Source: a virus
DNA: 64,000 nt
Strand: one strand, 5' to 3'
IMG/VR virus record: IMGVR_UViG_3300025929_000012
Coordinates: 32,001 to 96,000 of that record
Part shown: positions 10,733-48,194 of the stretch, one piece after another
How positions within the stretch are numbered: the stretch's first letter is position 1
Layout of the letters: every line of letters begins with the position of its first letter
Made by a program: the position numbers and the translations under genes
The notes under the pieces: model-generated
The model's database searches: none
What the model saw: only the letters and a program-made list of their open reading frames with translations
What the model was told of the DNA's origin: nothing

Positions 10733-10770
10733 CACCCTCCGTCGCGGGCGAGTGGTGGCAGGATGAGCGC

Positions 10771-14100: not shown

Positions 14101-15320
14101 CCGAGGTCGGCGATGTGGCCGACGGCCTCGCGGATCAGCGGGTCGAACTGGGGCAAGAGGGTGATGAACGACTTGACGAGGTCGATGATCGTGGAGCCTG
14201 CGGCGGAGACCGTCGCGGTGCCGGTGGAGGAGATAAAGTCCCGGAACCGCGTGAACGCCTGTGAGTTGACGAGGTCGCCGAACTGCTGGCCTAGCCCCTT
14301 GATGACCGGTGATACGGCCTGGATGATGGGCGGGAGGGCCTTGGTGAGGCTGGTGACGGACGTCAGCCATGGGACGAGCGCCCCGGCGATGACGGGGGCC
14401 TGGGCTGCCTTGAGGTCTTTCCAGCCTTGCGACATGGTGCCGAGCTGCCTGGACAGGTCGATTTGCGCCTGGGACATGCCCGCGTAGGCGGCCTTCACGG
14501 CCAGCGCCTGGTTGGATGCCGCGGTGGCGTCCGCCTTGCGGAGCGCGGACAGGGCGGCGACCTGCTGGGCGTGGGTTTTCGCGGCCCCGGACGCGACCTG
14601 GTACTGGGCAGCGGCCTTCCCGATCGCCGTGTTGTACGTCGTCTGCGCGGCGGCGGCGGCCTTCTGGGCTGCCTCCGCCCCGGCGAGGACCGGCTTGGCG
14701 ACGGCCCCGAACGCGGCGAGTGCCCCGGCGCCGGCGGTGAACGCCCCCGCGAGGCCCACCGCTGCGCCGGTCGCGACCCCGGCGGCGGTGCCGAGCGCCC
14801 CGACAGACAGCAGTGCGGGGCCGAGCCAGAACGGGCCGCCGGCGTTCCTCAGCTTGTCAGCGAGCCCCTGGACTTTCGCGGTCACCTTGTCCAGGTCGCT
14901 GTTCGCCTGCGCGGTGTCGGCCCTGACCCTGACCGTGGGGGACTTGCGGCCGAGCGCGTCCGCCTTGGCGGCGGCCTTGCCCAGCCCGGCGTCGGCCTCG
15001 GTGGTGTCGGCCTTGACCTTGACGACGGGGGCTTTCTTGCCGAGCTGGTCAGCTTTCGCGGCGGTCTTGTCGAAGTCGGCGAGCGCGTGGGTGCTGTCGC
15101 CCCGCACGCGGACGACGGCGGTCTTGCGGCCGAGGCTGTCGGCGTTCTTGCGGACGTCGGCGAAGGTTTTCCGGGCGTCTTCGGCGTCGGCCTTGACCTT
15201 GACGGTGACGGGCTTGCCGGAGAACTTGGCGGCGTCGGCTTTCGCTGCGTCGAGGTCCCGCGTGAACTCGTCGCGCTTCAGGACAAGCCTGGCCTCCACG
15301 CTGCCGGCGTCGAAGCTCAT
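11193..15320 (-). CDS. Tape measure protein with C-terminal NlpC/P60 and lytic transglycosylase domains
   Basis: 1375 aa helical; WTGEEGPELV; PYVLGG...WDCSG...GHVG; QIQTESGG...SVGLLQLIPATF; GYDEGG...NRTGRPEPVL. Confidence 0.92.
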   Translation of the reverse strand: MSFDAGSVEARLVLKRDEFTRDLDAAKADAAKFSGKPVTVKVKADAEDARKTFADVRKNADSLGRKTAVVRVRGDSTHALADFDKTAAKADQLGKKAPVVKVKADTTEADAGLGKAAAKADALGRKSPTVRVRADTAQANSDLDKVTAKVQGLADKLRNAGGPFWLGPALLSVGALGTAAGVATGAAVGLAGAFTAGAGALAAFGAVAKPVLAGAEAAQKAAAAAQTTYNTAIGKAAAQYQVASGAAKTHAQQVAALSALRKADATAASNQALAVKAAYAGMSQAQIDLSRQLGTMSQGWKDLKAAQAPVIAGALVPWLTSVTSLTKALPPIIQAVSPVIKGLGQQFGDLVNSQAFTRFRDFISSTGTATVSAAGSTIIDLVKSFITLLPQFDPLIREAVGHIADLGPAVLKWSQSKKASDDIQRFMQWFSQNGPKVWGLLQSIGGALKALAPGLTAGGTGEIQVLTGFFNLIAKLPPSFAKPIAEVAGWLLILNKLGVVSVGVKVIGAAAGWISRLLSGATVTVAATAQQTAATAMQVAADTMVTAAAAMQRAADTMIGADAGAGKAGGAGGKAAGAGAGAAGGGVVSSGIGILGKSGIAIGGAAIAAGLILKIREDMKAGWNAIAGDIPKALSGVGGILTLAASGWSDLLVKPVETHVRAFWQRVEHDFAAHFAEIRHDFARWTDDLLHVTASGFDRIRHAAATDLAALRHQAAVIFDGMRRETAHIWAIIYNNTVGTVTRMGKDAIAHLRSGLIGPFEAGLRGAWNWLVANFAVPLSRFFTSTLPGYFNAAIRFLRANFVSPLESAFRGTWNWLMANFGTPIARWLTQTIPGYFATAVARVKGAWSGIENAFIGPARFVVNNVINPLIGDADAVLSFVHLPQIPKVPRFARGTGGAPPGWAWTGEEGPELVYMKGGEVVLPSPLSQRLAGPGVFPGYAAGTPAATAGGNPGGLGGLWGHVTGTIAGALNWAKNLTLGALAATFTPAADALLGLMPKPASGAEGMIEAVPRALVTDLIGYIKSKDPGAGVGGGSGASVANYAKTFATGLGHPYVLGGASPNGWDCSGFSAFVYEHFGYFPEKQGNRHGTSESQFVDPLTQSSGNQTGALVFFNDGIFANPGHVGITLNPSAYVSASGHAVGTIVQPISNAVGYRVPKGGFVTAGAGSLGPGSSNYAADITTVLRSMGLPLTLVGNWLSQIQTESGGSLTAVNLTDSNAQAGHPSVGLLQLIPATFAAYAGPYRNTPPLVNFGGGPVSENAMAQIYAGIHYAAARYGGAGMASVIGHGHGYDEGGWLKPGATMVMNRTGRPEPVLTGGQWDKLTSAVAGNDVCAKLDRIAGILASLPHATAAGVGDVINGTARAASLRARYPHS

Positions 15321-15361
15321 CCGCCATCACCGCCGCCACTCAAGGTGAGATGATGTGCGCC

Positions 15362-15526
15362 ATGAGTGACGAGAAGCGGGGCGCGCGGGTGAGGGCAGCC
15401 GTGAAGCGCTGCCCGGGCAAGGGGCTGCTCACCGTCCGGGGCGTCGTGTGCGCTACAGCAGGGCTAGCCGTCGCCGGGGCCGTGGCGTGGGCTGCCGTGA
15501 AGGTGGCGGGCCGCCGTGCCGGGTGA
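15362..15526 (+). CDS. Small membrane protein
   Basis: 54 aa, one TM segment; GATGAT 7 nt upstream. Confidence 0.6.
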   Translation: MSDEKRGARVRAAVKRCPGKGLLTVRGVVCATAGLAVAGAVAWAAVKVAGRRAG

Positions 15527-15707
15527 CGTCCTGCCGCCGCCGGACGAGTGGAACCGGGCCGTTGAGCACAGCCGCGCCTGCCCGGGGCACAGCCTCGGGC
15601 CCTACGAGGACGACGACGGCAACACGCACATGTCCTGCGACGGCAGCGGCGACCCGTATGAGCCGTCGAACTGCGGCTTCGACACCGCTACCGGGGCGCG
15701 GACATGA
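15516..15707 (+). CDS. Hypothetical protein
   Basis: ORF in coupled plus-strand cassette. Confidence 0.55.
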   Translation: MPGDVLPPPDEWNRAVEHSRACPGHSLGPYEDDDGNTHMSCDGSGDPYEPSNCGFDTATGART

Positions 15708-16066
15708 GCGAGGACGACAACGGGCGGCTAGAAGATGCCAACGCCCGTCTAGGCGAGGCGATCACCGGGGCAGCCGAGGCGGTAGCCCGGTCCCTCGGAT
15801 CACTGACCGGATGCGTCATCGCGGCGCTGCGGGTCCTCGCCGCTGACCCGGTGGTGCGGTTCGCGATGGAGCACCCGGAACTGCTCCGGGCAGAGCGGCC
15901 TAAGCCGTGCTGGTGCCTGTGCGCTAAGGCCCACCCGGGGCTAGCGGTCTGCGACGGCGAGGGCGTCGCCACCGGGACGGTCACCCTGGAGGGCTACGGG
16001 CCGGTGACGGTGCAGTACTGCGCCGCGTGCGCCGCCGCGCAGGCGAGCCGGAGGTTCCGCTCGTGA
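15704..16066 (+). CDS. Hypothetical Zn-binding protein
   Basis: CxCxC..H..C..CxxC; ATGA overlap. Confidence 0.65.
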   Translation: MSEDDNGRLEDANARLGEAITGAAEAVARSLGSLTGCVIAALRVLAADPVVRFAMEHPELLRAERPKPCWCLCAKAHPGLAVCDGEGVATGTVTLEGYGPVTVQYCAACAAAQASRRFRS

Positions 16067-16386
16067 CCGTGACCGCCCCGGCTAGCACGGCCGAGTCCCG
16101 GGCTGCCGCCCTCACCATGTTCGAGGGACGGGTTCCGTGCCTGTTCCATCTCGCGGACCCGGCATGCGCGGCGGTTGCCCGGTGGCTGGCGTGGTTCGCC
16201 CATGAGGAGAACACCGCACGCTGCGAGAGCGACGAGCCGTGGCCTGTCTGCGACCAGCACAAGCAGGTGATCCAGGCGAGCAGTGACCCGTTCTGGCGTA
16301 CCTGGCACAACATGCAGCCGGTTCTCTGCACGCGGTGCGGGACGCCGCTGCGGCTGGAGCGTTTCGAGCCGCTGTCATCGCCTTAG
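16063..16386 (+). CDS. Hypothetical Zn-binding protein
   Basis: CxxH and CxxC; GTGA overlap. Confidence 0.65.
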   Translation: MTVTAPASTAESRAAALTMFEGRVPCLFHLADPACAAVARWLAWFAHEENTARCESDEPWPVCDQHKQVIQASSDPFWRTWHNMQPVLCTRCGTPLRLERFEPLSSP

Positions 16387-16716
16387 CGCCGCTGCCCTTC
16401 CAGGCTGGCGATCATCCCGGCGAGGTCGAACGCCTCCGCTTCAGCAGCTTCCACGGCCCGGTACCCGGACCCTGCGGCGGTGAGTGACCGAATGTCATCG
16501 GGGACGGTCATGTCCGCGTTCAGCGGCACCTCAGGCCGGGTCAGGAGCTCTTCGGCGTAGAAGCCTTCCAGGTACGCCTGCTGGTGCGCCCAGGGCAGTC
16601 CCGCCCATGCCTGCGGCGAGTAGCCCAGGTACCGGCGGGCCAGGTACAGGATGAGCCTGTTGTTGGCTAGCTGACGGACCTTAGCGCCGGCCTCGAAGCG
16701 GCGCCGCCTGCTTCCG
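16383..16716 (-). CDS. Tail assembly chaperone -1 frameshift extension
   Basis: Open -1 frame with no start codon (...LILYLARRYLGYSPQAWAGLPW...EGQRR*) entered at C_CCG_GAA 16718-16712. Confidence 0.75.
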
Positions 16717-17083
16717 GGTTCAGCTCACCGGCCAGCCAGCTGAAGAACGCGAGCCGCACCCTGGGGGGCAGCTTGGAGATCTGCGCGAGGGTCGGGGAGC
16801 CGCCGCACAGGTCCGCGTACGGCTTGGTCAGCACTGACAGCACTGATGGGAGCTGGCCTTCGGGGAGCGCGGCGATCGCGGTGAGGATCGCCTCCGGGTC
16901 GGTCCCGGCCGCCTCGACGCCTGCCATCGACGCCGCGTTCTTCGCCTGGCTGACGGCGAGGTCGGTGATGAACTTGTCGAGGCGCTTCTCGGACGGCTCG
17001 GGGACGGTGCCCTTCCCGCCGTTGTACGCGGTGAAGTCCCATTCGAGGGGCTCCACCACCGTGCCACTGTCGAAACCTGGCAT
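16667..17083 (-). CDS. Tail assembly chaperone
   Basis: Between tail tube and tape measure; ends ...GELNPE; GAAGGA RBS. Confidence 0.8.
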   Translation of the reverse strand: MPGFDSGTVVEPLEWDFTAYNGGKGTVPEPSEKRLDKFITDLAVSQAKNAASMAGVEAAGTDPEAILTAIAALPEGQLPSVLSVLTKPYADLCGGSPTLAQISKLPPRVRLAFFSWLAGELNPEAGGAASRPALRSVS

Positions 17084-17148
17084 GCAGGGGGTCCTTCCAT
17101 CAGCGTGTCGGCAACCTAGAGGACATTGAGATCCTGTAGGATTGGGGC

Positions 17149-17502
17149 ATGGATGAGATGAGCATCGAGCAGGCACGGCTGAAGCTCGGGGAGGTCGTTG
17201 ACCGGGCGCGGATCGCGGATCAGTTCACGACGATCACCCGCCAGGGGAAGCCCGCCGGCGTGGTCGTGTCACCGGGCTGGCTTGAGCGCACGCGGGCAGC
17301 GCTCGCCGCCTTCGCGGGCAGCGAAGACCCGCCAGTCTCGGCCAGTGAGGTACGCAAGCACGTCGTTCACCTGGGCGGCCTGCTGGACGGGATGCGCAAG
17401 ATCATGCTCACGGACGAGGTGCGGGACTACTGGAAGCACCTTCAGGACGAGGTCGTTGCCCTCGCCGCCTTGCTACCGGAGAACGCAGAGGGAGAGCAGT
17501 AA
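17149..17502 (+). CDS. Phd/YefM-family antitoxin-like protein
   Basis: MSIEQARLKLGEVVDRA...ITRQGKPAGVVV; TAGGAT 6 nt before ATG. Confidence 0.8.
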   Translation: MDEMSIEQARLKLGEVVDRARIADQFTTITRQGKPAGVVVSPGWLERTRAALAAFAGSEDPPVSASEVRKHVVHLGGLLDGMRKIMLTDEVRDYWKHLQDEVVALAALLPENAEGEQ

Positions 17503-30213: not shown

Positions 30214-31128
30214 TTATACCCCGCTGAGCAGCACAATTGCGCTTGGCTGATCTAGACCTACGGCTGACGCCCTTTGCACGTCGCTCCTCGAAGCCTTGCG
30301 GCTCTCATCCCGATAGAGCGGAGAAGCCTGGTACGGCAATTCGTCGGCAATGAAGCCGCACCTATTGCGCTGCATGATAATGGCATTCCCGGCCGGTATT
30401 TGCCTCGATACCATAACATCGAGGTTAAATATCCGATTGGGAAGCACCCCCGTATACTGTAGCGATTCCGATGCGATATCGCCAATATAGGGCGCGGCGA
30501 ATGAGGATGACTGAAGAAGGGTATTCTTCGTTCCGTGATTGATTATCATGGTGTCTGCCTCGAATCCGAGGAAAGACGAAAGGCCGGTGATCGGGCTTGC
30601 TATTGAGGCGTTTTCGATCAAATACACGCCATTGGCGATGTCCGCGCGGATGGTGGCGTTGCTTGACGCCCACGCGTTGGACACCGCCAGGGTCTGGATG
30701 CCCGCGTTAGCTACTACAGCGCTGTAGAAGGCCGCGTTCCACGAGTACACCATCGTGTTCTTGACCTGCGTCAACTGCCGCGTGACCGGGTCGACGGACT
30801 GCCGGCGCCGCATCTCGTCGGAGACCATGATGGCCATCGCCCGCTCATGCGAGAACACGACCCGGGGAATGCCGACGGACGTCGGGACGACAGGGACCTC
30901 GGCGAACTCAGCGCGGATTTCCGGCACGTCATCCGCATATAGCGGAGTGCTCTCGGAATAGCGGACGGCACCGGACTCGGCGAGGCCACCGGAGCGCAAG
31001 ACGGCGTCTACGATGAACTCGTTCTTCGTCATGTCGAGGATCAGCGCGGGGATCGTCAGGGGGTCCTTGAGGAGGGCATCAACGGTAATCCGCGGGCCGT
31101 CCATGCTGGTGTACGCGGGCGTGGGCAT
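30214..31128 (-). CDS. Major capsid protein
   Basis: 304 aa after scaffold and cement genes; ITVDALLKDP...AEFAEVP...SDEMRRR; GAAGGA RBS. Confidence 0.9.
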   Translation of the reverse strand: MPTPAYTSMDGPRITVDALLKDPLTIPALILDMTKNEFIVDAVLRSGGLAESGAVRYSESTPLYADDVPEIRAEFAEVPVVPTSVGIPRVVFSHERAMAIMVSDEMRRRQSVDPVTRQLTQVKNTMVYSWNAAFYSAVVANAGIQTLAVSNAWASSNATIRADIANGVYLIENASIASPITGLSSFLGFEADTMIINHGTKNTLLQSSSFAAPYIGDIASESLQYTGVLPNRIFNLDVMVSRQIPAGNAIIMQRNRCGFIADELPYQASPLYRDESRKASRSDVQRASAVGLDQPSAIVLLSGV

Positions 31129-31774: not shown

Positions 31775-33058
31775 CTAGATGCCAGTGCGGCGGCGGAACT
31801 CCGAGACGAGCGCGGCACGGTCCTGCGCGGCCTTCTCCTCCGCCTGGCGCTCCGCGTCCGCGCTGAAGTCCAGGGGGGTGCCGAGCTCGCCGGACAGGTC
31901 CAGCATCCTGACTGTCTGCCCGACCTCCTTCAGTACCTTCCGCACGATCGCCCCGGCGTCGATGGAGGAGCCGTTGGACAGTTCCACGACGTGGCCCTCA
32001 CCTTCGAGGACGGGCCGGGCGAGGTCGGTGATCCTGGGGGGGATGCCGTACTCGCGGGAGTACCAGTCGCGTTCCTTCTCGAACGCGGCACGGTTGAGCG
32101 CCTGGGTGACGCGGGCCAGTTCCAGGGACGTTTCCTCGGCGCGGCTGTTGGCGAGGTCAATCTGCGCCTGCGCCTCAGCGGACAGGGAAGCCCCGGCGGT
32201 GACAGGCTCCCGGTCGCCTTCCTTGTCGCCCCCGGCCCCGCCGTCACCGCTTGTGCCGTCGCCTTCCCCCTCGCCGTCTTCGGGGAGGGAGTCGATGAGC
32301 TCCTGCAGCTGCTCATCAGTCAGCTGGTCATCAGCGCCTTCCCCTGCGGCGGTTTCCCCCCCGGCGGCGAGGACGGCGTTGAACTGGTCGTCGGGGAGGT
32401 CCAGCAGCCGGGCTAGCCGGGCCTCCTGCGCGTCTGTGAGTGCCATGCGGTGTTCCTCCTGCGTGGGAGTGCCGGGTTCGGCTGGCGGCTGTGATGCGGG
32501 CGGGGGCGGCGGCTCAGGGGCCTGCCCTGGCGGGGCGTACTGCTCGGCGGTCAGGTCGAGTACCTCGCCGTCGCCGTCGTTGGCGGCCTCGATCGCCTGC
32601 CACGGGCGCATGCCGGTGATGCGGGGGTCGAGGGTGCCGAGGACGTGCTGGATCGCGGCGGGGAAGAACGCGCCGTCAGCGCGGTGGTAGTCCTCCACGA
32701 TGCGGGCTGAGACGCCGAGCGCCGGGTTCTTCCGCAGCACCTCATCGCCGTCCTCGGTGGCGGCGAGGATCAGGTCGAGGCCGTCGTCGGTGGCCTCGAA
32801 GCCGCGGACCTCGCCGCGGAACCGCTCCGGGTCGTTGGTGTGGGAGTTGTCGCCGGGAGCGAGCTGGAACGGCACCTGGTCGAATGCCCGCGCATTGAAG
32901 GCTTTGGCAAGGCCGGCGAGGTACTCGGGCGTGAACGCGATCTTGCGGCCCTTGTACGAGATCTCGCCGACGGGGAGAATCTGCTTCCGCCACAGGCGGG
33001 ACGCGCCGGACGGGCGGGCCTTCCCCCGGTCTACCGGGGTGAGCATGGTCGTGGTCAC
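31775..33058 (-). CDS. Prohead protease/scaffold (Mu I-like)
   Basis: WRKQILPVG...H..DPE..RG...GVSARI...HVLGTLDPRITGM; acidic coiled-coil C-terminus; GGAGG RBS before GTG 33058. Confidence 0.85.
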   Translation of the reverse strand: MTTTMLTPVDRGKARPSGASRLWRKQILPVGEISYKGRKIAFTPEYLAGLAKAFNARAFDQVPFQLAPGDNSHTNDPERFRGEVRGFEATDDGLDLILAATEDGDEVLRKNPALGVSARIVEDYHRADGAFFPAAIQHVLGTLDPRITGMRPWQAIEAANDGDGEVLDLTAEQYAPPGQAPEPPPPPASQPPAEPGTPTQEEHRMALTDAQEARLARLLDLPDDQFNAVLAAGGETAAGEGADDQLTDEQLQELIDSLPEDGEGEGDGTSGDGGAGGDKEGDREPVTAGASLSAEAQAQIDLANSRAEETSLELARVTQALNRAAFEKERDWYSREYGIPPRITDLARPVLEGEGHVVELSNGSSIDAGAIVRKVLKEVGQTVRMLDLSGELGTPLDFSADAERQAEEKAAQDRAALVSEFRRRTGI

Positions 33059-33159
33059 TGGCCGCCTCCGCTTCTTTTCCGGGTTGCCGTGCTGAGCGGC
33101 CGGGACCGCGCGCAGCCAACCCCCCAGCAACTGCGCGCGGACCGGGCGGCTCAGCCTGC

Positions 33160-33188
33160 TTGCCATCCGTGTCTTTACCGGGTAAAGT
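33160..33188 (+). promoter_or_regulatory. Promoter with operator 2 (CTTTACCGGGTAAAG, 33173-33187)
   Basis: TTGCCA-17bp-TAAAGT; ATG 8 nt downstream. Confidence 0.85.
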
Positions 33189-33196
33189 CTGGCGTC

Positions 33197-33472
33197 ATGA
33201 CTGACATGACCGCCGAGGCCCGTGACGAGTTCGACCCGGTCGGCCTCACCGAGATAGCCACGATGACCGACCCGCCGATGACGCGCCAGCACGCGCTTTG
33301 GGTGATGGGCCAGGAAGGGGCACCGGAGCCGAGGCTGCTGGCGCGGATGAAGGTGTGGCGGCGGTCGGAGGTCGAGCCGTACCTGAAGGAGCATGCCGCC
33401 CGGGTTGCCGCCGGGTGGCGTCCCGTTCCCCGCGACCCCGCGTCGGGGCGGTTCAAGGGGAAGGAGTCGTAA
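33197..33472 (+). CDS. AlpA-like HTH DNA-binding protein (candidate repressor of the operator)
   Basis: VGLTEIA...TRQ...PEP...KVWRRSEVE. Confidence 0.75.
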   Translation: MTDMTAEARDEFDPVGLTEIATMTDPPMTRQHALWVMGQEGAPEPRLLARMKVWRRSEVEPYLKEHAARVAAGWRPVPRDPASGRFKGKES

Positions 33473-33482
33473 GGCCGTCCGC

Positions 33483-33516
33483 TTGCCGTCCTTCACTTTA
33501 CCTGGTAAAGTGAAGG
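33483..33516 (+). promoter_or_regulatory. Promoter with extended operator 3 (27-bp palindrome, 33490-33516)
   Basis: TTGCCG-17bp-TAAAGT; CCTTCACTTTACC-T-GGTAAAGTGAAGG. Confidence 0.85.
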
Positions 33517-35964: not shown

Positions 35965-36530
35965 CCACCACGGCCGACAGCGCGAGCGCCACCTACGCGC
36001 TCGCCAGGAAGGTCGCCGCCGGACTCGGCGGCGGCGCTGCGGCCCGTCCCGGTGAGTACGGGGCTGAGATCACCGACGGCGCGACCCGGCTGCACCTGAC
36101 GATCTCCTGGCATGACCCGAGTCGCCTGGAAGTGTCCGGGGTTTACCCGTCCACGAGGCAGGAGCGCCTCAGGCGGACCAGCATCAGCGTCCGCATCGAC
36201 CGGGGGCCGGCAGTCATCGCCCGCGAGATCCGCTCCCGGCTGCTGCCCGGCTACCACGCCGAGCTCGCCCGGGTTACCGAGCTCAACGCCGGGGAGGCGC
36301 ACGACGCCGGGATGCGGGAGGCGCTGGCCGGGAAGATAACCGGCATGTTCCCCGGCGCGTTCACCCGCGTCACCGGCTACACGGGCCACGGCACTGAGGT
36401 GGTCATCCCCGGCGGCGACGGGCCGGGTGGCACCGTGAGCCTGTCCGGCAGCGGGGCCTCGGTGGCGATGACGTTCCGCTGCGTACCCCCGGAGACGGCG
36501 GTCCGCATGCTGGCGGTCCTCGCCGGGTGA
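35961..36530 (+). CDS. Hypothetical protein (IAREIRSRLLPGY)
   Basis: GTGA overlap; 189 aa. Confidence 0.75.
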   Translation: MTTTADSASATYALARKVAAGLGGGAAARPGEYGAEITDGATRLHLTISWHDPSRLEVSGVYPSTRQERLRRTSISVRIDRGPAVIAREIRSRLLPGYHAELARVTELNAGEAHDAGMREALAGKITGMFPGAFTRVTGYTGHGTEVVIPGGDGPGGTVSLSGSGASVAMTFRCVPPETAVRMLAVLAG

Positions 36531-36550
36531 CCTGAGCGCCCCGGTGAGCG

Positions 36551-36584
36551 GGCCGTCCCCCTTGACCGGGGTGGCGGCCTTTTT
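36551..36584 (+). terminator. Intrinsic terminator
   Basis: GGCCGTCCCCC...GGGGTGGCGGCC followed by TTTTT. Confidence 0.75.
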
Positions 36585-36772
36585 CAGTCCTTCATGAGGG
36601 CGTGGTCGAACGGGACGTCGGCTACCTGCCCGGCGGGGATCGCGGCGACCTCCGCCTCGATCTGCGCGAACAGGGCCCGGTTACGGGTCGTCTGCGGGGC
36701 CCCGGATTCCTCGAACGGCTTCCCCGACGCGGCGGCCATCAGCATCAGGTGGGCTGCCTCGCCGCGCTCCAT
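36584..36772 (-). CDS. Small protein coupled to the zeta toxin gene (candidate antitoxin/immunity)
   Basis: AAGGAG RBS; TGATG overlap; 62 aa. Confidence 0.65.
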   Translation of the reverse strand: MERGEAAHLMLMAAASGKPFEESGAPQTTRNRALFAQIEAEVAAIPAGQVADVPFDHALMKD

Positions 36773-38127
36773 CACTGGTTCTCCTTCGCCAGGAACCGGG
36801 CGTACGCCGCGCGGTCCTTCACTGACCATGCGCCGCCGCGGGGCTTGGCGCCGATCAGGGTGGCGGGGGTGCCCTGGGGGCCGTTGTTGTCGTGGAGCGT
36901 CGCGGAGTCGAACAGGTCACGGGCGATCGCCTGCCGGAACGTGCCGGACACGGCGGCGTGGGTTTCCCGCAGGAACGTCTCCGGGACGGCCCGGCCGGTC
37001 TTCGCTGCGCGGGCCTGCGCCCGCTTCAGTGCCTCGCCCGTGTCGACGGTGACGTACTGGCCGTGGACGTGATAGCCGGCCTTCCGCGCCGCGGTGACCT
37101 TCCCGGCGAGCTTCTCATAGTGGGAGTCACCGGTGCCGTCGAGGGTGAAGTCACGTTTCCCGGCGACCGCCCGGTCCATGATCTTCTTCGCGACCCGCGA
37201 TGACTCCTCATGGACGTACGCGGCGGCGGCCTTGTCCCCGGCGGCCTTCATCGCGGCGTACTCCGGCAGCTGCGCCTTGACGTCGTCCGGGTTGATGACG
37301 ACGCCGCGCATCTTGCCCGTCGCCGACTTCCCCGACGCCGGGCCGCCGCCCATGAACGTCGCCGTCGGGTCCGCGGACCGGGCAGACCCGGCGAGCGCCC
37401 CGGCGATGATCTTCTCGTGGAGGGCCTGCCGTTCGGGGGTGAGCTGCCCGCCCCTGGTGTGCGCGTCGAGGCTGTCGGCGGCGGGGCCGGCCCCGTCGAG
37501 CTTGACCCAGCCGTGCTTGTACCGGTACGGCGCGTGAGCGAGGTTGATCACGTCGCGGTGCCTGCCGCTGAGGGCTGGCTTCCCCGTGAACGCCGGGTTG
37601 GCCATCACCCCGGCCTTGCGCCTCGCGATGCCCTGCGCGGCGGCGAAGGCGCCGGCCTCCTTGAGGAGGGCAGTAATCGGCAGGCCGGCGCGGACCACCG
37701 GCATCCCCGCCGGGACCTTCGCGCCGCCCTCGGAGTCGGCGAGGACCCTGCCCGCCCAGGTGTGGTGCCCGTCAAGGACCCGGTTGTCGGAGCTGATGAT
37801 GACCGGCTTGGTGTCGGTGCCGGCCTTGACGGAATCAGCGATGCCCCGTATCGCGGCCGTGTCCCCGGTCGCCTGCGTCGGGCGCAGCGACCTGGCGGGC
37901 ACCCTGGCGGAGGTGACCGTGATCCCCTTGGCCTGCAAGTGCGCGATGAACTTCGGCATGAGCGCTTTCGACGGCACGTACTGCCCGTTCACGGTGCCGG
38001 AAAGCTGGGGCATGTCGCCGCGGTCGATGCCGAGGTTCCCGTGGTAGGTGACCGTGCCCCCGGACGGGACCCCGATGAGCCGCCAGCCGTGCGTGTACCG
38101 CTGCGGGGCGCCGGCCAGGTCGATCAC
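36772..38127 (-). CDS. ParB-like nuclease plus zeta-toxin (P-loop kinase) fusion
   Basis: RGDMPQL...LRPTQ...VIISSDNRVLDGHHTW; GGGPASGKS, INPDDVK, VHEESS, LDGT, TGRAVP. Confidence 0.85.
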   Translation of the reverse strand: MIDLAGAPQRYTHGWRLIGVPSGGTVTYHGNLGIDRGDMPQLSGTVNGQYVPSKALMPKFIAHLQAKGITVTSARVPARSLRPTQATGDTAAIRGIADSVKAGTDTKPVIISSDNRVLDGHHTWAGRVLADSEGGAKVPAGMPVVRAGLPITALLKEAGAFAAAQGIARRKAGVMANPAFTGKPALSGRHRDVINLAHAPYRYKHGWVKLDGAGPAADSLDAHTRGGQLTPERQALHEKIIAGALAGSARSADPTATFMGGGPASGKSATGKMRGVVINPDDVKAQLPEYAAMKAAGDKAAAAYVHEESSRVAKKIMDRAVAGKRDFTLDGTGDSHYEKLAGKVTAARKAGYHVHGQYVTVDTGEALKRAQARAAKTGRAVPETFLRETHAAVSGTFRQAIARDLFDSATLHDNNGPQGTPATLIGAKPRGGAWSVKDRAAYARFLAKENQ

Positions 38128-38168
38128 CTGGAGCAGTTCACCCCACCGGGCCGGGCTGAGGCCGCCGC

Positions 38169-39005
38169 CTACGCCGCCGCTGAGGCTTTTGGGCCTGCCG
38201 CCTTCCCGTGCATCGCCGCTGCCCGCTTCGCCATCGCCATCGCCACGGCTGGCTTCATCCCCTTGGCGAGCAGTTTCCGGTAGATGGCCGCCACGTCAGG
38301 TGACAGCCCCCCGGCTGGCTTGGCTGTCGCCGCTGGCTTCCCGGTGCCCATCGTGGTGACCCGCGGGCCGTCCACCGACGTGGCGGCCGACGTGAACGGC
38401 AGCGCCCCCGCGAGGTCCACTGCCCCGTCCTGCTCGCCTGCGTACGACGCCGTGCCATCCTGCTGAGCCGCCGGGAAGCCCCGCGCCCGCTTGTTGTGAT
38501 GGTCGATCAGCCCCGCCAGGGCGCCCTGCTGCGACCCGGACGCCCCGGTGGGAGTCCCGTCAGCGTGCTTCCCGGCGTAACCGCGCCCCTTCGCGGTGAT
38601 GACGCCGATCTTCATGCCGCTGCTCTTATGCTGAGCGGTGATCATCCCCGGAGCCGAACGGGACAACTGGACGTCAGCCGGGCCGCGGACCACCGGCATG
38701 CGTCTGGTCATGGTGGCCAAGCTGATCGCCTCCGTGTCGTTATTCGCGCCCTGGAAAGGCCATGTCCCCTTCACCCCGGGCGCGTTAGTGGCTTTGAGCT
38801 GCCTCGCCCGCTTGCGGATCAGCCGGGCCAGCGCCGGGCGCTTAGGCGCGGGCGCACGTCCCACAGACCGGATAGCGCGCTTGAGGTAGTCCAGGTTCGG
38901 GACCGGGAAAGCCGGCGGCTGGCCGTCAGCAGCGGGGAGCGCCTGTCCCTTCGCGGCGAGTTTCTTCCGGGACGCGGCGCGCTGAACTGGCGGGGTCTTG
39001 ACCAT
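38169..39005 (-). CDS. Basic putative internal head protein
   Basis: FPVPNLDYLKRAIRSVGRA...LIRKRARQL, as in prohead-associated proteins; GAGAGGA RBS. Confidence 0.75.
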   Translation of the reverse strand: MVKTPPVQRAASRKKLAAKGQALPAADGQPPAFPVPNLDYLKRAIRSVGRAPAPKRPALARLIRKRARQLKATNAPGVKGTWPFQGANNDTEAISLATMTRRMPVVRGPADVQLSRSAPGMITAQHKSSGMKIGVITAKGRGYAGKHADGTPTGASGSQQGALAGLIDHHNKRARGFPAAQQDGTASYAGEQDGAVDLAGALPFTSAATSVDGPRVTTMGTGKPAATAKPAGGLSPDVAAIYRKLLAKGMKPAVAMAMAKRAAAMHGKAAGPKASAAA

Positions 39006-39039
39006 GCAGCTTCCTCTCGCGAGCGCTACGCTGGCCCGA

Positions 39040-39148
39040 TGAAAGGGCGGGACGTACTAGTCCCCGCCGCCCGGAGAGCTAAAGCCGGTCAGTGTGATCC
39101 CGGGCAGGAGCGCGAGGGCCGGGCCAGGCGCGCTCTCCCGCCCTTTCA
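39040..39148 (-). promoter_or_regulatory. Mutually exclusive terminator/antiterminator RNA structure
   Basis: Perfect 13-bp inverted repeat 39040-52/39136-48 competing with a local hairpin at 39046-68. Confidence 0.55.
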
Positions 39149-40648
39149 CTTCGCCGTAACCAGCAGGTCATTCGCCTGCCACTCAAAACCGGGAGGGCAC
39201 AGGATCGTCGCCCGCACCCGGGTGCGCTGCGCAGGCCCCATGCTGTTGATCACCTCAGCAGTCCGTTCCGGGGTGTCATGGCGGGTGAACTGCGGCGGGC
39301 GGGGAGTGAACTGGCCGCCTTCCCGCACCCCCGGGGGGACGCGCTCAGCGGGGGCGATGAGGCGGCGGACCTCTGGGGCGGGCACCGTGAGGGCGTCAGC
39401 GATGGCGAGGTCGAGGAACCGGCCGCCGTCCCCGCTGAGCCTGATGGCGTTCGCTTGCCTGTCCAGTGCCCCGGCCTGCGCCCGCAGCGCCTTCGCCTTG
39501 CCTGTGAGGGCCGCCACCGTGGCCCGGTTCCGCGCCAGCGTCCGCCGCGGTGCCCCCGCGGAGGACTTGGTTGCCGCGTTCCCGGCCTTCCTCGGGGCCG
39601 CCTTCGCCAGCGCCGCCGTAGCCTTCGCCGCCGCCGTCGGGGCCACCTTCCTGGCCGCCTTGGCCGCTGCCGTGGCCTTCACCTGCGCCGCGATAACCTT
39701 CTGAATGCCGGCGATCTGCTGGTCGATGCCCGCTGCCTTCACCCGGTCGGCGTTCGCCTGGGCGTGGAGGGCATCCTTCCGCGCCCTGGGCGCCAGCGGG
39801 GCCGACGCTTTCGGCGTGCCCGGCTTCGGGGTACCCGGCTTGACGGCTGCCGTCTTCGGCGTGGTCGGCTTCGCCTTGGCGGGAGTTGTTCCCGTGCCTC
39901 CCGCCGGCTTAGCGGTGCCGACTGCCTTCGCCTTCGGCTTCGCGGCGGCCTTCTTCTTCACGGGCGCGTCCGGGAGCGGGTGCGCCGCGATCGCCGCAGC
40001 AGCCGCCGCCTCCGTCGCCGCCGCAGTCCCCGGCTTCGGCTTCCCCTTCGGCGCGTTCAGTGCCTTCAGCAGCCCCGCCAGCTCCTGCCGCTGCGCCGGG
40101 GTCGCCTTACCTGTCGCCACCAGGTGCTGCAGGTGGGCAATGTGGGCCATGTGCAGGGCATGCTGCTGCGCGGCTGTCTTGCCTGCCGTGCCGCCCGAGT
40201 TCGTGCCCTTCCCCGACGTGGTCCCGAACTGGCCGCCGGCCGGTGAACCTGCCGGGACATGAGGCGGCACGTAGCCGAGGTCGATGGACTGCCCGTTCCA
40301 GGTGAGCGCGATCACGGCACCGCCCTCGTTCGCATGGGCGTGGGCGACAGCGGACTTCGCGGCGAGGTCAGCCAGCGCCGCCTGAGCCGCCGCGACAACC
40401 TCAGGGTGGGCCTTCCCGCCGCCCCGCGCCCACCTGCGGATAGCGCCCCAGGTGATCGCGTACGCCACGGCGGGCGGGTGACCGGAGCGGATGAGAGCAT
40501 CCCTGACGTGCTGAAAGTACGGCAGTTATGGAGGCAGCTCCATCCCCTTCACGTGGTAAAGGCCGGGACCGCCCGGTTTCCCCGCCGGGGCTGGCGTCAC
40601 TGCCAGCCGCGCGGTATCCGCGGACATCTCGATTGGTGCTGCGCTCAC
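39146..40648 (-). CDS. Ala/Lys-rich putative internal head protein with in-frame TAA at codon 41
   Basis: GTG 40648 with GGGGGTGA RBS is in frame with ORF 39146-40468; TAA at 40526-40528. Confidence 0.7.
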
Positions 40649-40667
40649 TTGCCGATCACCCCCAGCC

Positions 40668-41111
40668 CTAGTTCGATCGACGGGCATGCATGACGTCCCA
40701 CGGGCCTGTGGCGGTCTTCGCGGTGCCTACCCATGCGGTCACCGGGCGGCCGAGCGCGATGCTCGCCAGTGCGCGGCTGTGGCCGTCCACGAGGCGGAGG
40801 AGCCTCGTGCCGGGCCGCCGGATCGCGACGACCGGCTTCCTGGCCCCCGCCCTGAGTGAGCTGACCATGGAAGCCACCTTGAGGCGGTCCTTCGCGGCCA
40901 GCGCCCAGTTCGGGTCGTTGTCGCGGTCTAGCTGCCGGGCCGGGACCATGACGGGTTGCGCCCGCCATTGGACCTCGTCAACCCAGCCGAGGGAACCGGG
41001 CGGGTAGTCGCGGGCGAGCTGGATCTTCACCTCTTGCGCCACGGTCAGCTTCTGCGGCGTGGCGAGGGGGGCGTGGGCGTCGGAGACGGGCTGGACGGAC
41101 GGAACGGCCAC
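40668..41111 (-). CDS. ParB/Srx N-terminal-like protein
   Basis: KPVVAI...LVDGHSRALA. Confidence 0.8.
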   Translation of the reverse strand: MAVPSVQPVSDAHAPLATPQKLTVAQEVKIQLARDYPPGSLGWVDEVQWRAQPVMVPARQLDRDNDPNWALAAKDRLKVASMVSSLRAGARKPVVAIRRPGTRLLRLVDGHSRALASIALGRPVTAWVGTAKTATGPWDVMHARRSN

Positions 41112-42596: not shown

Positions 42597-43154
42597 ATGG
42601 GCGCGGCACGGGGGCGGCTGCTCCGCGCGGGACTGGCGGTGATCCTCGCCGGGTTCGCGTGCGGGGTCGCGTCGGCAACCCTGTCGTTCGCGTGGGCGTA
42701 CACCAGGGCAGGCGGCCTCTCTGAGGCGTCATGGTGGCTGACGTGGCTCGCCCGGGGGTGCTTCGCCATCGCGGTGGCGTGCGCGGTCCTGCAGCGGCGG
42801 CTGCGGGCACAGGAGGCCAGGATGCTGCACGATACCCGGCCGCGCCCCGACTACGCTGCCATCGCCGCGATGGAGACCGAGATCTGGGGGCACCCGTTCC
42901 ATCACGCGGGAGCGCCGTGGCGCTGTGAATGGCCTGCCTGGTGCGGGCCGGGCCGGGAAGCCGACGCGGCGGAGGCCCTCAAGGCGCGGGGCATCCTGGT
43001 TACCCGGGTCACCGGTCACCCTGCCATCCCGGACGGGGAAGTGGTCCTGGTGAACCCTGACAGCGGCTACCAGCCCGGCTACGGCAGCACCTCGGCGCCC
43101 TTAAACGGGGCAATGGCACGGCACCTGCAGTTGGGATGCGCGGACCCGGGGTAG
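42597..43154 (+). CDS. Membrane protein (2 TM; RPDYAAIAAME motif)
   Basis: Hydrophobic N-terminus; 3' end overlaps MuF gene. Confidence 0.6.
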   Translation: MGAARGRLLRAGLAVILAGFACGVASATLSFAWAYTRAGGLSEASWWLTWLARGCFAIAVACAVLQRRLRAQEARMLHDTRPRPDYAAIAAMETEIWGHPFHHAGAPWRCEWPAWCGPGREADAAEALKARGILVTRVTGHPAIPDGEVVLVNPDSGYQPGYGSTSAPLNGAMARHLQLGCADPG

Positions 43155-43744
43155 GCAGGGTGGCCTTCGACGACAGGCGGATGGTCAGCCCTGAAGTTCT
43201 TCCCGCTGGCAGCAGCGCAGCCCGGCGAGCACCTCGGGTCAAGCTTGGCCTGCCAGCCCAGGAGGTTGCCGTGCTTCGCGGCCATCCCGTCGACCGCCGC
43301 CGCCGCCGCAACTCGCTGCGCCGAGGCTTCCACGTGGAGGCCGAGGTAGCGCTTCTCCGTGGCCAGCGCGTCCCTGATCGCGGTCATGGCCGGCTGATCC
43401 TTCGACCGTGCCGCCTTGACCGCCTGCTGAACCCGCCTCGCTGCGGCCAGGAAAAACTGCGCCTTCCGGAGAAGGTTCTGCCGCGCGGCGAATCGTGACG
43501 CCGGCCCGGCGCCCTTCACGGCCTCACCCGGCCCGGAGGAGAACAGGGCGGCCACGGCGGACAGGACGGCGGCGGAGATCCCCGCCGCCTTAAAGGGTGC
43601 CCGTAGCGCCGCGCTGAGCGCCTTCACGGTCCCGTAGGCGGCGAGGGCAGCGACGATCAGGGCAATGAGGTGATCATCGGGAGACGGCGGGGGCTGCTGG
43701 CCCGGTGCGGGCTGCTGCTGCGGGGCTTGCGGGGCGGGCGGCAC
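43079..43744 (-). CDS. MuF-like minor head protein
   Basis: GWQAKLDPRCSPGC...PGSAHPNCRC. Confidence 0.9.
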   Translation of the reverse strand: MPPAPQAPQQQPAPGQQPPPSPDDHLIALIVAALAAYGTVKALSAALRAPFKAAGISAAVLSAVAALFSSGPGEAVKGAGPASRFAARQNLLRKAQFFLAAARRVQQAVKAARSKDQPAMTAIRDALATEKRYLGLHVEASAQRVAAAAAVDGMAAKHGNLLGWQAKLDPRCSPGCAAASGKNFRADHPPVVEGHPAYPGSAHPNCRCRAIAPFKGAEVLP

Positions 43745-44418: not shown

Positions 44419-45948
44419 CTAAGCCTTCGGTATCCCGAGGGTGGGCATCCCGAACGGCTCGGCGATGTTCTCCGGCAGCGGCTCACGGCCCGCCTGGGCG
44501 AGGGCCTGCTGCGCCACCCGGGTAGCAGCCGCCGTCCCCCCCGCCAGCCGCCCCAGTGACGCCGCTGCTTCCTTCGGCATCCCCGGCGGCGCCGTCGCCA
44601 CCACGTGGGCCTCCCGGTCCCTAGCGCCCTGCTGCACGATCTGCGACACCGCGTCCACGTCCAGGTTCAAGACCGTCGCCAGCCGTTCCGTGATCAGGTC
44701 GAGGATCGCGGGCGGCACCTGCAGCGACGGGGCAACGGCCAGCTCCTGGAACAGGCCCACCAGCTGGGATGACGACTCGTCGGTGAGCGCCCCGAACTTG
44801 AACACCGGGTAGGCGGCGGACGGCCCGAAGTTCAATGTGACTAGCGGCGCTATCACGTCATGGGTGAGGGACTCGGCGATCTCCGCCGAGATGGCCTGCC
44901 GGGACTTCAGGAAGAACGCGCTCTGGTCCTGGGACAAGGCGAGGCTGCCCTTGCCCATGGACGCGAGGCTGGACAGCCCCGTGAAGCCTGCGAGAACCGA
45001 TGCGGTCTGCCACGTCTCCAGGAACGCGAGCGCATCGGCAAATTGTGAGGCGCCTTTCCCTGAGCTTTCGAGCACCTCGAAGTCTTTTGCGCCCTGCGGG
45101 CCTCTTGTGAATCCCGCCACCCCGGAAGCCCGCATTGAGGCGACGTCATCAGCTCGCGCATTGGCCTCACGCTGATCCTGGCCGTACACGATCACTTTAG
45201 GCAACGACTGTTGCTCAAGGAACGCCAGCCACAAAAAGACCAACTTTAGCTTCGTTTTGTAACACCAGTAACAGACCGCTAGCTCGGACGTGCCGGTTAG
45301 CGGCTCACGGTGCCGGCCATTTACGTGGACGAACGAGCGCACCTTCGGGATGTCCACCCAGCCCGGCGTGGACCCCGGTCTCGTGCTCAGCGCCTGGCCG
45401 CCGAGCAGGAACAACTGCTGGCGGAAGCCCATCTCAGCGGCCGTCTTCGGATCGCGGCGCAGCTCGCACGTGGCGGTCGGGCGGTGCGCGAGCTTCTCGT
45501 AGGTGACCGCGCCGTCTTCCTCGCGAATCCGGAAAATCTTTTCGTGAAAGGATTTTCTATAGATTTGCGCTGACGTGACTTGCCCGATGACATCCTGCAG
45601 CGGCGTCTTCATGCCGCCGGACGTGGCGGGGGCGAACAGCGCGGAGTTGCAAAGCTCTGCCTCGCCGCTGTCGCCCTTGGACGGCTCGATCGCCCGCGAT
45701 GCCTGCCTGATGGGCAGGGTCAGGACGGCCTCAAGCGCAGACGCCTGGCCGTCCTGGTCAAGCATCTTCGCAACGTCACGACTTGACCACTCTCCGTAGT
45801 CGAGTACCGAGCCGTCACCGAACGTGGAGAACATGCGGGTCATGGAGTCGTACTGAGTCCCGAGTTCCCCGCCGAGGATCTGGTTGCGAGTCGCGGGCTT
45901 CAGGTCGGGGAACTTGACGATGCGCGCCGTCTGCGGGTCGGGAGCCAC
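44419..45948 (-). CDS. Portal protein (DUF935/Mu gp29-like)
   Basis: 509 aa after TerL; GSLALSQDQS...IAPLVTLNFG. Confidence 0.9.
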   Translation of the reverse strand: MAPDPQTARIVKFPDLKPATRNQILGGELGTQYDSMTRMFSTFGDGSVLDYGEWSSRDVAKMLDQDGQASALEAVLTLPIRQASRAIEPSKGDSGEAELCNSALFAPATSGGMKTPLQDVIGQVTSAQIYRKSFHEKIFRIREEDGAVTYEKLAHRPTATCELRRDPKTAAEMGFRQQLFLLGGQALSTRPGSTPGWVDIPKVRSFVHVNGRHREPLTGTSELAVCYWCYKTKLKLVFLWLAFLEQQSLPKVIVYGQDQREANARADDVASMRASGVAGFTRGPQGAKDFEVLESSGKGASQFADALAFLETWQTASVLAGFTGLSSLASMGKGSLALSQDQSAFFLKSRQAISAEIAESLTHDVIAPLVTLNFGPSAAYPVFKFGALTDESSSQLVGLFQELAVAPSLQVPPAILDLITERLATVLNLDVDAVSQIVQQGARDREAHVVATAPPGMPKEAAASLGRLAGGTAAATRVAQQALAQAGREPLPENIAEPFGMPTLGIPKA

Positions 45949-46493: not shown

Positions 46494-48194
46494 TCACCTC
46501 CACGTGCGGACGTTGGGCCGGTCGGGGCGGCCGTCGTCGTCCTGCGGCGCCCACGCGTCCGGGGAATCCCACCCGTCCCGCCTGTCCCGGTCATCCGGAC
46601 CACCGGGACGGCGACGCGACCTGTCCTCCGTCAGCCGCTCCAAGTCGGTGTGCGCCGCCCACTGCCTCGCCGACGGAGAATGAGGCAGTGAACGCGGCCA
46701 GTAGCTCTGAACGCAGGCGTCACCGTCGTCCGTGCTGCGGCCAAGCCGCTTCTCGATCTCGTCCTTGGACTCCACCGCGATCTTGCCCCCGGAGGTGACC
46801 GTCCACTGAGGGGCCGACAGGTCGCCGAGCAGCATCTCGTCGTCGGGGAGGCACAGGTCCGAGCCCGCCGACGGGTCAAGCTGTTCCCTGAGGCCCCACC
46901 AGGCCGCGCTGCGGGTGCAGTTGAAACCGAGGGTGCCTGTGCTGTCCATGCGATCCGTGCGGTTCGACGCGCCGAACGCCTCCACCTTGCAGCCCTGCTC
47001 ATGCAGCCGGTCGTACACGCCGCCGCCGACGCCGACCACGTCAATGACCGCGGTGCGGGCCGGGTCCGCGTCGAGAACAGCCTTTACCTTGCCCGCGGTG
47101 ACCATCGTGCTTTCCTTGGCCGTCTTCCGCAGCTCCACCAGCACCGGGCCGTTGCGGACCGCGATTACCGTCTTCGCGGTCCCGTACCTGGCGACGTCCA
47201 CGCCCGCCGTGCGCGGGTAGTCCATGTCGGTGCCCGGCCTGCCCGCGAGGTCCCACTCATGCCAGCGCTCAACCGCCGCCTCGGCCCACGCCAGGGGGAT
47301 GACCGAGTCCTCATCGCCGGCGTGGAACTCGCCCAGCACCCGGTTCTGGTAGATGCTCGAATCGGGGCCCCACTGGAGCGCACGCTGGGCGGCCCATGCC
47401 GGGTCGATCTGCCCCGCCGCTATCGCCTGGTCGAGGGTTATGTGGACGGCGTGCCAGTCCTCGTAGCCGGGCTTGCGGGACTGGATGTCATAGAAGCGGC
47501 CAGACGGCGCACCGGGCGTTGACAGGGCCAGCGCGAACGCTTCCCCGGTGCCGTTCAGCGCGCCCTCGCAGGCGTCGAACGTGCCCGCCGGGATCGCCTT
47601 AGCCTCATCGAAGACGAACAGGAGGCTGTCAGCGTGCGCGCCCTCAATGAGGGCCGAGTTGGCGGACGCGCTGGCGAACGCCGCGCCGTGGTTGAGGCGC
47701 AGGTTCAGGTTCATCAGCTCATTGGGGCTGAACGGGTGGCCGCGAAGGCGGACGTTGAGCTCCTCGTGGGCGGTCAGCCGGTCACCGCGGACCTTGTCCC
47801 AGCGGACCCGGACGGCCCAGCGGTGGATCTCCCTCCACAGGAACTTGGAGATCTGATGCCATGACCCGGCGGTGGTCGCGACCTTCCAGTCCACCCCGGC
47901 GGCCTCGCGGGTCAGCGCGAACCACAAGACTGTTATCGCGGACAGCGCCGACTTGCCTGCGCCGTGCGGCGAGCGGACGCATACCCGCTTAGCGGCAGGC
48001 AGGCCGCCGATGATCTCCCGCTGGTAGGCGGTGAGGCTCTTGCCGCGCCAGTCGATGCAGTCCTCGGCGAACGCTACCGGGTCGTTGTAGTACCGCTGCG
48101 ACGCCGCTGCCTGGCTGGCCGCTGCCTGCCGCTGAAGGTCACGGAGGTAGCGGAGACGGTCAGGCGGTGCCTGTACCAGCCGGGTCGTTGGCAC
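46494..48194 (-). CDS. terL: Terminase large subunit
   Basis: Walker A SPHGAGKS, Walker B FVFDEA, STP, nuclease GVDVARYG, RSTDDGDA. Confidence 0.95.
   Translation of the reverse strand: MPTTRLVQAPPDRLRYLRDLQRQAAASQAAASQRYYNDPVAFAEDCIDWRGKSLTAYQREIIGGLPAAKRVCVRSPHGAGKSALSAITVLWFALTREAAGVDWKVATTAGSWHQISKFLWREIHRWAVRVRWDKVRGDRLTAHEELNVRLRGHPFSPNELMNLNLRLNHGAAFASASANSALIEGAHADSLLFVFDEAKAIPAGTFDACEGALNGTGEAFALALSTPGAPSGRFYDIQSRKPGYEDWHAVHITLDQAIAAGQIDPAWAAQRALQWGPDSSIYQNRVLGEFHAGDEDSVIPLAWAEAAVERWHEWDLAGRPGTDMDYPRTAGVDVARYGTAKTVIAVRNGPVLVELRKTAKESTMVTAGKVKAVLDADPARTAVIDVVGVGGGVYDRLHEQGCKVEAFGASNRTDRMDSTGTLGFNCTRSAAWWGLREQLDPSAGSDLCLPDDEMLLGDLSAPQWTVTSGGKIAVESKDEIEKRLGRSTDDGDACVQSYWPRSLPHSPSARQWAAHTDLERLTEDRSRRRPGGPDDRDRRDGWDSPDAWAPQDDDGRPDRPNVRTWR

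Follow-up and report, generated by a model that had tools for sequence, protein, structure and literature searches.

Several phage systems are known in which a structural protein is extended by ribosomal frameshifting. Minus-one (-1) frameshift extensions have been reported for gene 10A/10B of T7 and T3, for the major head protein of Lactobacillus phage A2 and for Ig-like domains on capsid and tail proteins (Atkins et al. 2016, PMC5009743). For the Ig-like domains it was published that a mobile domain may insert either in or out of frame, and that frameshifting then allows its expression (PMC5009743). Small open reading frames (ORFs) follow 89% of the MuF toxin genes (PMC5576092), and MuF-like/VIP2 gene pairs are among the unconfirmed predictions of PRFect (PMC10885494). 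Iyer et al. (2017, PMC5512222) proposed that polyvalent proteins are packed and injected, and named DdrB-type ParB domains, zeta-like kinases and ADP-ribosyltransferases among their components. Here, we describe a gene pair, A and B, in a stretch of 64,000 nucleotides (nt) of the virus record IMGVR_UViG_3300025929_000012, which we refer to as the window. Programmed -1 frameshifting near the end of gene A probably yields an A-B fusion as a minority product, and a GTG codon at 38127 may also give free B. The elements of the locus are as follows.

38169..39005, minus strand: gene A, 278 amino acids (aa), the zero-frame product, ending at TAG 38171-38169
38187..38193, minus strand: slippery heptamer C_CCA_AAA, in the register X_XXY_YYZ of gene A, zero frame
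38172..38186, minus strand: conserved spacer GCCTCAGCGGCGGCG, from the heptamer to the zero-frame stop
38128..38187, minus strand: -1-frame linker of 20 codons (SLSGGVGGGLSPARWGELLQ), connecting A to B in the predicted fusion
38125..38127, minus strand: GTG, possible independent start of B and also the Val codon of the motif V-I-D-L-A-G
36772..38127, minus strand: gene B, 451 aa, with two cargo modules
36772..39005, minus strand: predicted transframe product of 744 aa, consisting of A (residues 1-273), 20 linker residues and B (451)
36584..36772, minus strand: 62-codon gene, whose ATG overlaps the gene B stop (TGATG)

Read on the minus strand, gene A ends with ...GCA GGC CCA AAA GCC TCA GCG GCG GCG TAG, in agreement with the first-pass annotation of this DNA, and the heptamer stands seven codons ahead of the stop as the sole X_XXY_YYZ heptamer in the overlap of the two ORFs (38171-38298). 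The two codons involved are indeed unusual, as had been claimed. In a crude set of 117 genes, which is also the basis of the genome-wide heptamer counts given below, CCA makes up 5.4% of the proline codons and AAA 7.7% of the lysine codons. The preferred codons are CCG and AAG, yet the junction uses CCA-AAA. CCCAAAA has a single occurrence in the 110-kb genome, both strands included. The same heptamer, C_CCA_AAA, is used by phage A2. Translation confirms that the -1 frame, open from about 38298, reads PKSLSGGVGGGLSPARWGELLQ-V-IDLAG... and joins the gene B ORF at its GTG. The ATG of gene A has a well placed Shine-Dalgarno (SD) sequence, GAGAGGAA, at 5 nt, while the SD-like GUGGGGUG before GTG 38127 is weak and misplaced, 11 nt upstream; the stop of gene A lies 42 nt upstream of this GTG. 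Such a weak ribosome binding site had been put forward as the alternative to frameshifting. It proved poor and distant, and the GTG route may still add free B. Transcriptional slippage was rejected as a source of the frame change, the run of four A being too short. The linker peptides SLSGGVGGGLSPAR and WGELLQVIDLAGAPQR are obtainable only by translation upstream of GTG 38127, whereas (f)MIDLAGAPQR is the N-terminal peptide expected of B if it is initiated at that codon.

The junction exceeds chance only because relatives conserve the heptamer and the frame relation. We collected 47 viral loci (L numbers) by homology to gene A, not by the heptamer, and inspected every A-type C-terminus (n = 25). 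An in-frame heptamer is present in three of the 25, namely in this window, L005 and L022. Their common tail is (G/D/P)PKASAA(A) followed by the stop, encoded by CCCAAAA GCCTCAGC(G/C)GCG, and in each of them the -1 frame continues with PKSLS(G/R)VG... into a module opening of the form (V/I)(D/E)L(A/V)G..(Y/F).HGW. The other 22 end with ...MHAKAAKAA or similar and show neither an in-frame heptamer nor a motif-opened module in the -1 frame. This association of heptamer and module, 3 versus 22, corresponds to a Fisher p of about 4e-4. Further proteins ending with (P/G)KASAA are P0010, P0012, P0019, P0022, P0048, P0051, P0093, P0100, P0124, P0129, P0134 and P0138.

C_CCA_AAA is conserved in L125/L130, L005, L022, L095/L121 and L048/L116. 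In five lineages the cassette CCCAAAA-GCCTCAGC shows no change at its synonymous sites, whereas the flanking codons drift. CCCAAAAGCCTCAGC(G/C)GCG remains unchanged even where the A proteins are only about 45-70% identical to that of the window and the adjacent AKRAAAMH codons vary, and GCCTCAGC(G/C)GCG is identical in all CCCAAAA lineages and in L180. Altogether, eight lineages carry an in-frame slippery heptamer (C_CCA_AAA, G_GGA_AAA or C_CCT_TTC) within seven codons of the upstream stop. In L180, an A-family gene of a phage with 59% GC, the heptamer is G_GGA_AAA, followed by the same spacer GCCTCAGCCGCG and by no start codon. The distant A-family gene of L181 has G_GGA_AAA three codons before its stop, with a different spacer. 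L188 has C_CCT_TTC three codons before the stop of a 750-residue protein, and its -1 frame reads PFRLSPAGSGEFVGPKGYVHGW. Conservation of the heptamer and natural in-frame fusions in relatives had been named as checks at the outset; the former came out positive with three heptamers, all in register, and the latter with the protein P0136 described below.

In the following relatives, the downstream modules have no canonical start in front of the motif. The first ATG, GTG or TTG after the heptamer is found at the following distances, always past the conserved opening motif.

L005: 55 codons after the heptamer
L022: 28 codons after the heptamer
L095/L121: 44 codons after the heptamer
L048/L116: 77 codons after the heptamer
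L125/L130: 60 codons after the heptamer

L180 and L188 likewise have no start between heptamer and motif, so that the cargo lacks an ATG, GTG or TTG before its opening motif in six lineages and in the nearest relatives of the window. The latter, L125/L130, share 91% nucleotide identity over 1.75 kb and keep the cassette letter for letter. They read GCT GTT GAC where the window has GTG ATC GAC, and thus GTG 38127 is not conserved even in near relatives. Two of the five differences between the window and L130 in the linker are synonymous third-position changes in the -1 frame, upstream of GTG 38127.

A scan of viral contigs for GPKG(Y/F)xHGW, which is blind to the heptamer, returned 86 distinct modules. 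Fusion is their usual state, since 57 of them are internal to long ORFs; 25 have a possible start of their own and four have none. The evaluable cases without a start are L005 and L022, both with C_CCA_AAA, and L188 with C_CCT_TTC. Heptamers with Y = A or T occur at only about 0.05% of the codons in the genome of the window, and their presence at every no-start junction, within shift windows of 9-10 codons (L022, L188), is therefore far beyond chance. No heptamer is present in L175, L178 and L227, where an evident ATG directly precedes the motif of the module.

The cassette is also found near the end of a different kind of gene. In L048/L116 (a 141-kb contig with 61% GC), GGCCCAAAAGCCTCAGCGGCGG is located seven codons before the stop of a DUF6582 protein. 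It opens a -1 ORF of 1367 codons (L116:3-6115, plus strand, and L048), which has no start for 77 codons and no family match. When the A family was compared by hhalign with the DUF6582 protein (L116), no relation emerged, and homology of the upstream genes therefore does not explain the shared cassette. The linker peptide PKSLSGGVGSALSP of L048/L116 matches PKSLSGGVGGGLSP of the window through the synonymous changes GGC to GGA, GGC to GGT and AGC to TCG. That the peptide is kept through such changes, including the serine exchange from AGC to TCG, indicates that the stretch past the zero-frame stop is translated. A continuous version of the fusion exists as well. P0136 (810 aa) has an A-type C-terminus in frame with ...RRADPKALSGQPRHVIELVGPKGFIHGW..., a homolog of the -1 ORF of L022. 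Its junction reads DPKA|LSG, i.e., zero-frame PKA and then -1-frame LSG, with the switch one codon after the heptamer. This is as a one-base insertion in the spacer would give, and lends modest support to the fusion.

The candidate -1 frameshift of the first-pass annotation is thus supported by the cassette of the relatives, their missing starts, the heptamer variants and P0136. Ribosomes would start at the SD and ATG of gene A, and most of them would make the 278-aa A. A minority would slip back by one base on C_CCA_AAA, with tRNA-Pro moving from CCA to CCC and tRNA-Lys from AAA to AAA, and would read the 20 linker codons and all of B to give the 744-aa fusion. By analogy with MuF toxins and polyvalent proteins (PMC5576092; PMC5512222) and from the context of the locus, we infer further steps of packaging, dosing, processing and immunity. 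The N-terminal part of gene A would tie the cargo to the assembling head, as context and literature suggest. A ParB-like nuclease/NTPase and a zeta-type kinase would be packed in sub-stoichiometric amounts and delivered with the DNA, with the shift rate setting the dose. The repeated motif (V/I)(D/E)L(A/V)G..Y.HGW presumably labels cargo cassettes that can be exchanged for one another, and processing or docking may take place there. The product of the 62-codon gene, whose start is coupled to the stop of B, would scale with the amount of B and protect the producing cell.

Several observations weigh against this interpretation. In-frame X_XXY_YYZ heptamers number 65 in 25,563 codons genome-wide, and six genes have one within their last 12 codons versus about 3.6 expected; in one genome alone, the heptamer is within chance. 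At 70% GC, an open -1 stretch of 20 codons likewise carries no weight. Folding of the 87 nt behind the heptamer gives -44.9 kcal/mol, versus -44.5 for shuffled sequences (z -0.13), and the 45-nt folds are no better than shuffles either. A small hairpin GCCGC(G)/(C)GCGGC, opened by the spacer, lies 6 nt after the heptamer in L005, L022, L095 and L180, and L188 and L116 have other hairpins, the junction hairpins of the relatives lying 6-7 nt downstream of the heptamer. The window and L130 have no equivalent hairpin, and none of those in the relatives beats its shuffles. Several lineages with the cassette came to light in searches for the cassette itself and thus give no measure of its frequency; most genome and metagenome matches to the 19-nt cassette pattern are chance hits in short ORFs or other frames. 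For the in-frame fusion there is one sequence, from one assembly, and a search with the junction of P0136 found only P0136. Finally, the first codon of the module in the window is itself a GTG, and in many modules elsewhere an ATG of their own stands immediately ahead of the shared opening motif, which makes independent initiation an ordinary route to their expression.

The last point leads to an explanation by two ordinary genes. B would be made only from GTG 38127, perhaps aided by ribosomes terminating 42 nt upstream, and the heptamer would be inherited and functionless in this phage. The GTG stands directly before IDLAG just as an ATG does in other modules (e.g., MIDLVG in L005), and the ordinary RNA folding as well as the chance level of the heptamer in one genome are what this explanation expects. 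We nevertheless consider it unlikely, because the SD is poor and 11 nt off, the GTG is gone in 91%-identical relatives that keep the cassette, the cassette, two rare codons included, is preserved at its synonymous sites, and the linker frame ahead of the GTG contains two synonymous third-position changes. Instead, B and its small partner might form a toxin-immunity module that is stored but not translated, comparable to orphan cdiA-CT or rhs tips, and retained for recombination via the conserved junction, with only the small gene expressed. Modules are in fact shuffled between relatives (in L005 the ParB module is upstream of A and the zeta module downstream), the shared opening motif could guide recombination, and several modules lack start codons. 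An untranslated module, however, needs no in-register heptamer, yet three kinds occur in eight lineages; gene B has a strong codon-position bias and a substitution pattern of 5/3/16, and the ATG of the small gene overlaps the stop of B, which implies that ribosomes reach that stop. This makes the stored module very improbable. Hardly credible is an assembly or sequencing indel that splits one continuous gene by an erroneous frame change. P0136 shows that a continuous version can exist, but assemblies made independently from different samples (L125, L130, L005, L022, L095, L121, L048, L116 and L180) all show this layout of two frames with the same stop. Programmed frameshifting remains the preferred explanation, and in the phage of the window GTG 38127 may additionally give some free B.

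Gene A is modular: xxDLAG-like motifs divide it into a basic N-terminal domain (aa 1-88), a middle segment and a C-terminal part that is helical. Among its 148 homologs, 129 are of similar length and 19 are longer. The N-terminal segment of about 88 residues is the conserved part of the family. Many homologs have other modules inserted behind it, and each of these begins with the common opening motif; they include an ADP-ribosyltransferase and a PI3/4-kinase-like domain. No Pfam or PHROG family was found for gene A even at an E-value of 10, nor a MuF domain. ESM Atlas gave only weak leads, with DUF6582 at 0.77 and a predicted local distance difference test (pLDDT) of 0.59 for the model. The N-terminal domain matches a domain adjoining the head maturation protease in the protein of L188 (hhalign probability 91%, E 1e-6). 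The designation of gene A as a head protein is plausible in the light of its position and this link to a head-protease protein.

In L188 itself (8202-11179, minus strand), the 750-residue protein consists of an RNA-ligase/2H-like N-terminus and the head maturation protease domain, and a 252-codon -1 ORF without a start follows downstream. The 573-aa ORF 31775-33496 of the window is unrelated to the protease protein of L188. Upstream of gene A lies a 440-aa gene (minus strand, listed from GTG 40468) with conserved coding sequence before its GTG (40468-40545). This stretch is preceded by an in-frame TAA and then reads CTG CCG TAC TTT CAG... (LPYFQHVRDALIRSGH); its homolog P0136 begins with MPYFENIRNALIRSGH. 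The true start may be the CTG, with a GGAG 12 nt upstream, or there may be another recoding event.

Gene B carries the module opening I(D/N)LA..Y.HGW twice, at 38083-38127 and 37507-37551, as VIDLAGAPQRYTHGW at its first residues and as VINLAHAPYRYKHGW before the kinase. The first module is a putative ParB/Srx-like domain (about aa 24-158) and the second a zeta-toxin kinase (aa 250-414) with the Walker A motif GGGPASGKS. The first-pass annotation had labelled the protein a ParB-zeta toxin. Its zeta part stands as a clear kinase assignment, as judged from the match to Pfam Zeta_toxin (PF06414; 3.3e-26, 92.4 bits versus a cut-off of 22.3). For the ParB identity of the N-terminal half, PHROG matches are the sole source, with ParB-like phrog_8071 at 3.9e-4; the best PHROG is 16619 'minor head protein' (2.3e-41), and phrog_2859 follows at 5.9e-15. 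No Pfam model matched in the first 210 residues, which begin with the opening motif of the (V/I)(D/E)LVGPKGY.HGW type; comparison of gene B with PDB sequences gave nothing, and it has no MuF domain. The GC content at third codon positions is 0.93-0.98 in the frame of gene B, and substitutions against L130 number 5/3/16 at codon positions 1/2/3. Both observations argue that gene B is under purifying selection in its frame.

The 62-codon gene downstream may encode an immunity protein or antidote for the zeta module. It has no family match, and a homologous small ORF follows the zeta module in L005. The layout is not that of an epsilon/zeta operon, as the small partner is located downstream of zeta and is no upstream antitoxin of the epsilon type. 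In L005 (3600-6700), a 110-kb relative, the ParB-like module lies upstream of A, fused behind a module beginning with MIDLVGPKGYVHNW that looks ADP-ribosyltransferase-like by eye. Only the zeta module follows A there, via the CCCAAAA junction, and we regard this as module shuffling. Throughout the IMG/VR contigs (L161-L238), at least 86 distinct modules begin with (V/I)(D/E)L(V/A)GPKG(Y/F)xHGW, and a single locus can hold as many as three of them. The GPKG(Y/F)xHGW-type motif acts like a pre-toxin boundary motif, and most copies reside inside very long ORFs.

The window comprises bases 32001-96000 of a single contig of 110,328 bp with 70% GC and contains the late operon of the phage. Genes A and B lie within the approximately 12 kb that separate the MuF gene from the capsid gene. 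The landmarks, all on the minus strand, are the following.

46494-48194, minus strand: large terminase
44419-45948, minus strand: Mu-type portal
43079-43744, minus strand: MuF-domain protein (PF04233), the sole MuF match among the ORFs scanned
30214-31128, minus strand: major capsid protein
11193-15320, minus strand: gene of tape measure size

A blastn search of 36000-41000 against GenBank phages gave no match, and gene A had no relative among species-representative genomes. The relatives of the locus are uncultured soil-type viral contigs, and one homolog of gene A comes from a Streptosporangiaceae metagenome-assembled genome. This homolog and the GC content point to an actinomycete as the probable host. 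No tRNA genes were found in the window. There is no obvious tail-chaperone frameshift pair directly upstream of the tape measure gene (15320-17200, minus strand); ORF 16667-17176 is chaperone-like in appearance, and the region is broken up by ORFs on the plus strand. Outside the window, two genes of the crude set, on the plus strand of C1 (about 12415-12876 and 13226-13639) carry the lambda-type heptamer G_GGA_AAG 11 and 4 codons before their stops.

A more general proposal is tentative, and we hold it to be conceivable rather than probable. The portable cassette (X_XXA_AAA plus GCCTCAGC...) and the motif (V/I)(D/E)L(V/A)GPKGY.HGW might together form a plug-and-play cargo system in a sizeable group of high-GC soil phages, in which proteins of the head region receive exchangeable enzyme cargos either in frame or through frameshifting. 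Its cargos would be zeta kinases, ParB-like, ADP-ribosyltransferase, kinase-like and peptidoglycan-binding modules. The shift would set the packaged dose of a toxic cargo, and the motif would serve as a docking or cleavage signal and as a recombination joint, like VENN in CdiA toxins.

Among the described systems, the frameshift extensions of structural proteins share with the A-B junction a heptamer few codons before the stop, the location in a virion-gene region and a minority -1 C-terminal extension. The difference lies in the partners: the extension here is a 451-aa two-enzyme effector with a coupled small gene instead of a decoration or Ig-like domain, and the upstream protein belongs to no known family of capsid or tail subunits. 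The pattern of the Ig-like domains, in and out of frame, recurs in the 57 modules in frame and the few out of frame with heptamers. As far as the tail chaperone shift of lambda G/GT is outlined in PMC7302621 (citing Xu, Hendrix and Duda 2004), it too is conserved and takes place, by -1, on X_XXA_AAR close to where the upstream ORF ends. Its downstream ORF has no start of its own, as at the no-start junctions of our relatives, and its fixed product ratio is thought to matter. The lambda shift concerns other genes and another part of the virion, and its downstream partner is a conserved chaperone domain, unlike the variable cargo found here.

The MuF polymorphic toxins (Jamet et al. 2017, PMC5576092) and the MuF-VIP2 fusions of actinobacteriophages (PMC7302621) agree with our locus in their position in the head-morphogenesis region near portal and MuF, in the variable C-terminal toxin domain and in the small ORF immediately downstream, a putative immunity gene. 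In contrast, the carrier described here is not MuF, which is a separate gene (43079-43744), and the link would be made by recoding and not by a continuous ORF. Polyvalent proteins resemble B in combining at least two effector domains in one polypeptide, ParB-like and zeta in the case of B, amid virion genes, here between MuF and the major capsid protein. They are, however, continuous ORFs without a frameshift, and the word "frameshift" is absent from the paper (PMC5512222). Our literature search found no paper on the attachment of effector or toxin cargo by frameshifting. If true, the arrangement would explain the many phage effector ORFs near MuF and portal genes that apparently have no starts and are mis-annotated or shortened by gene callers, and the conserved module-opening motif would be a handle for cataloguing such cargos in metagenomes. 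The known uses of frameshifting in phages are decoration domains on capsid and tail proteins, and tail chaperones. The junction of A and B would represent a different use, in which a toxic enzyme cargo is tethered to a carrier of the head region and an effector dangerous to the producing cell is dosed.

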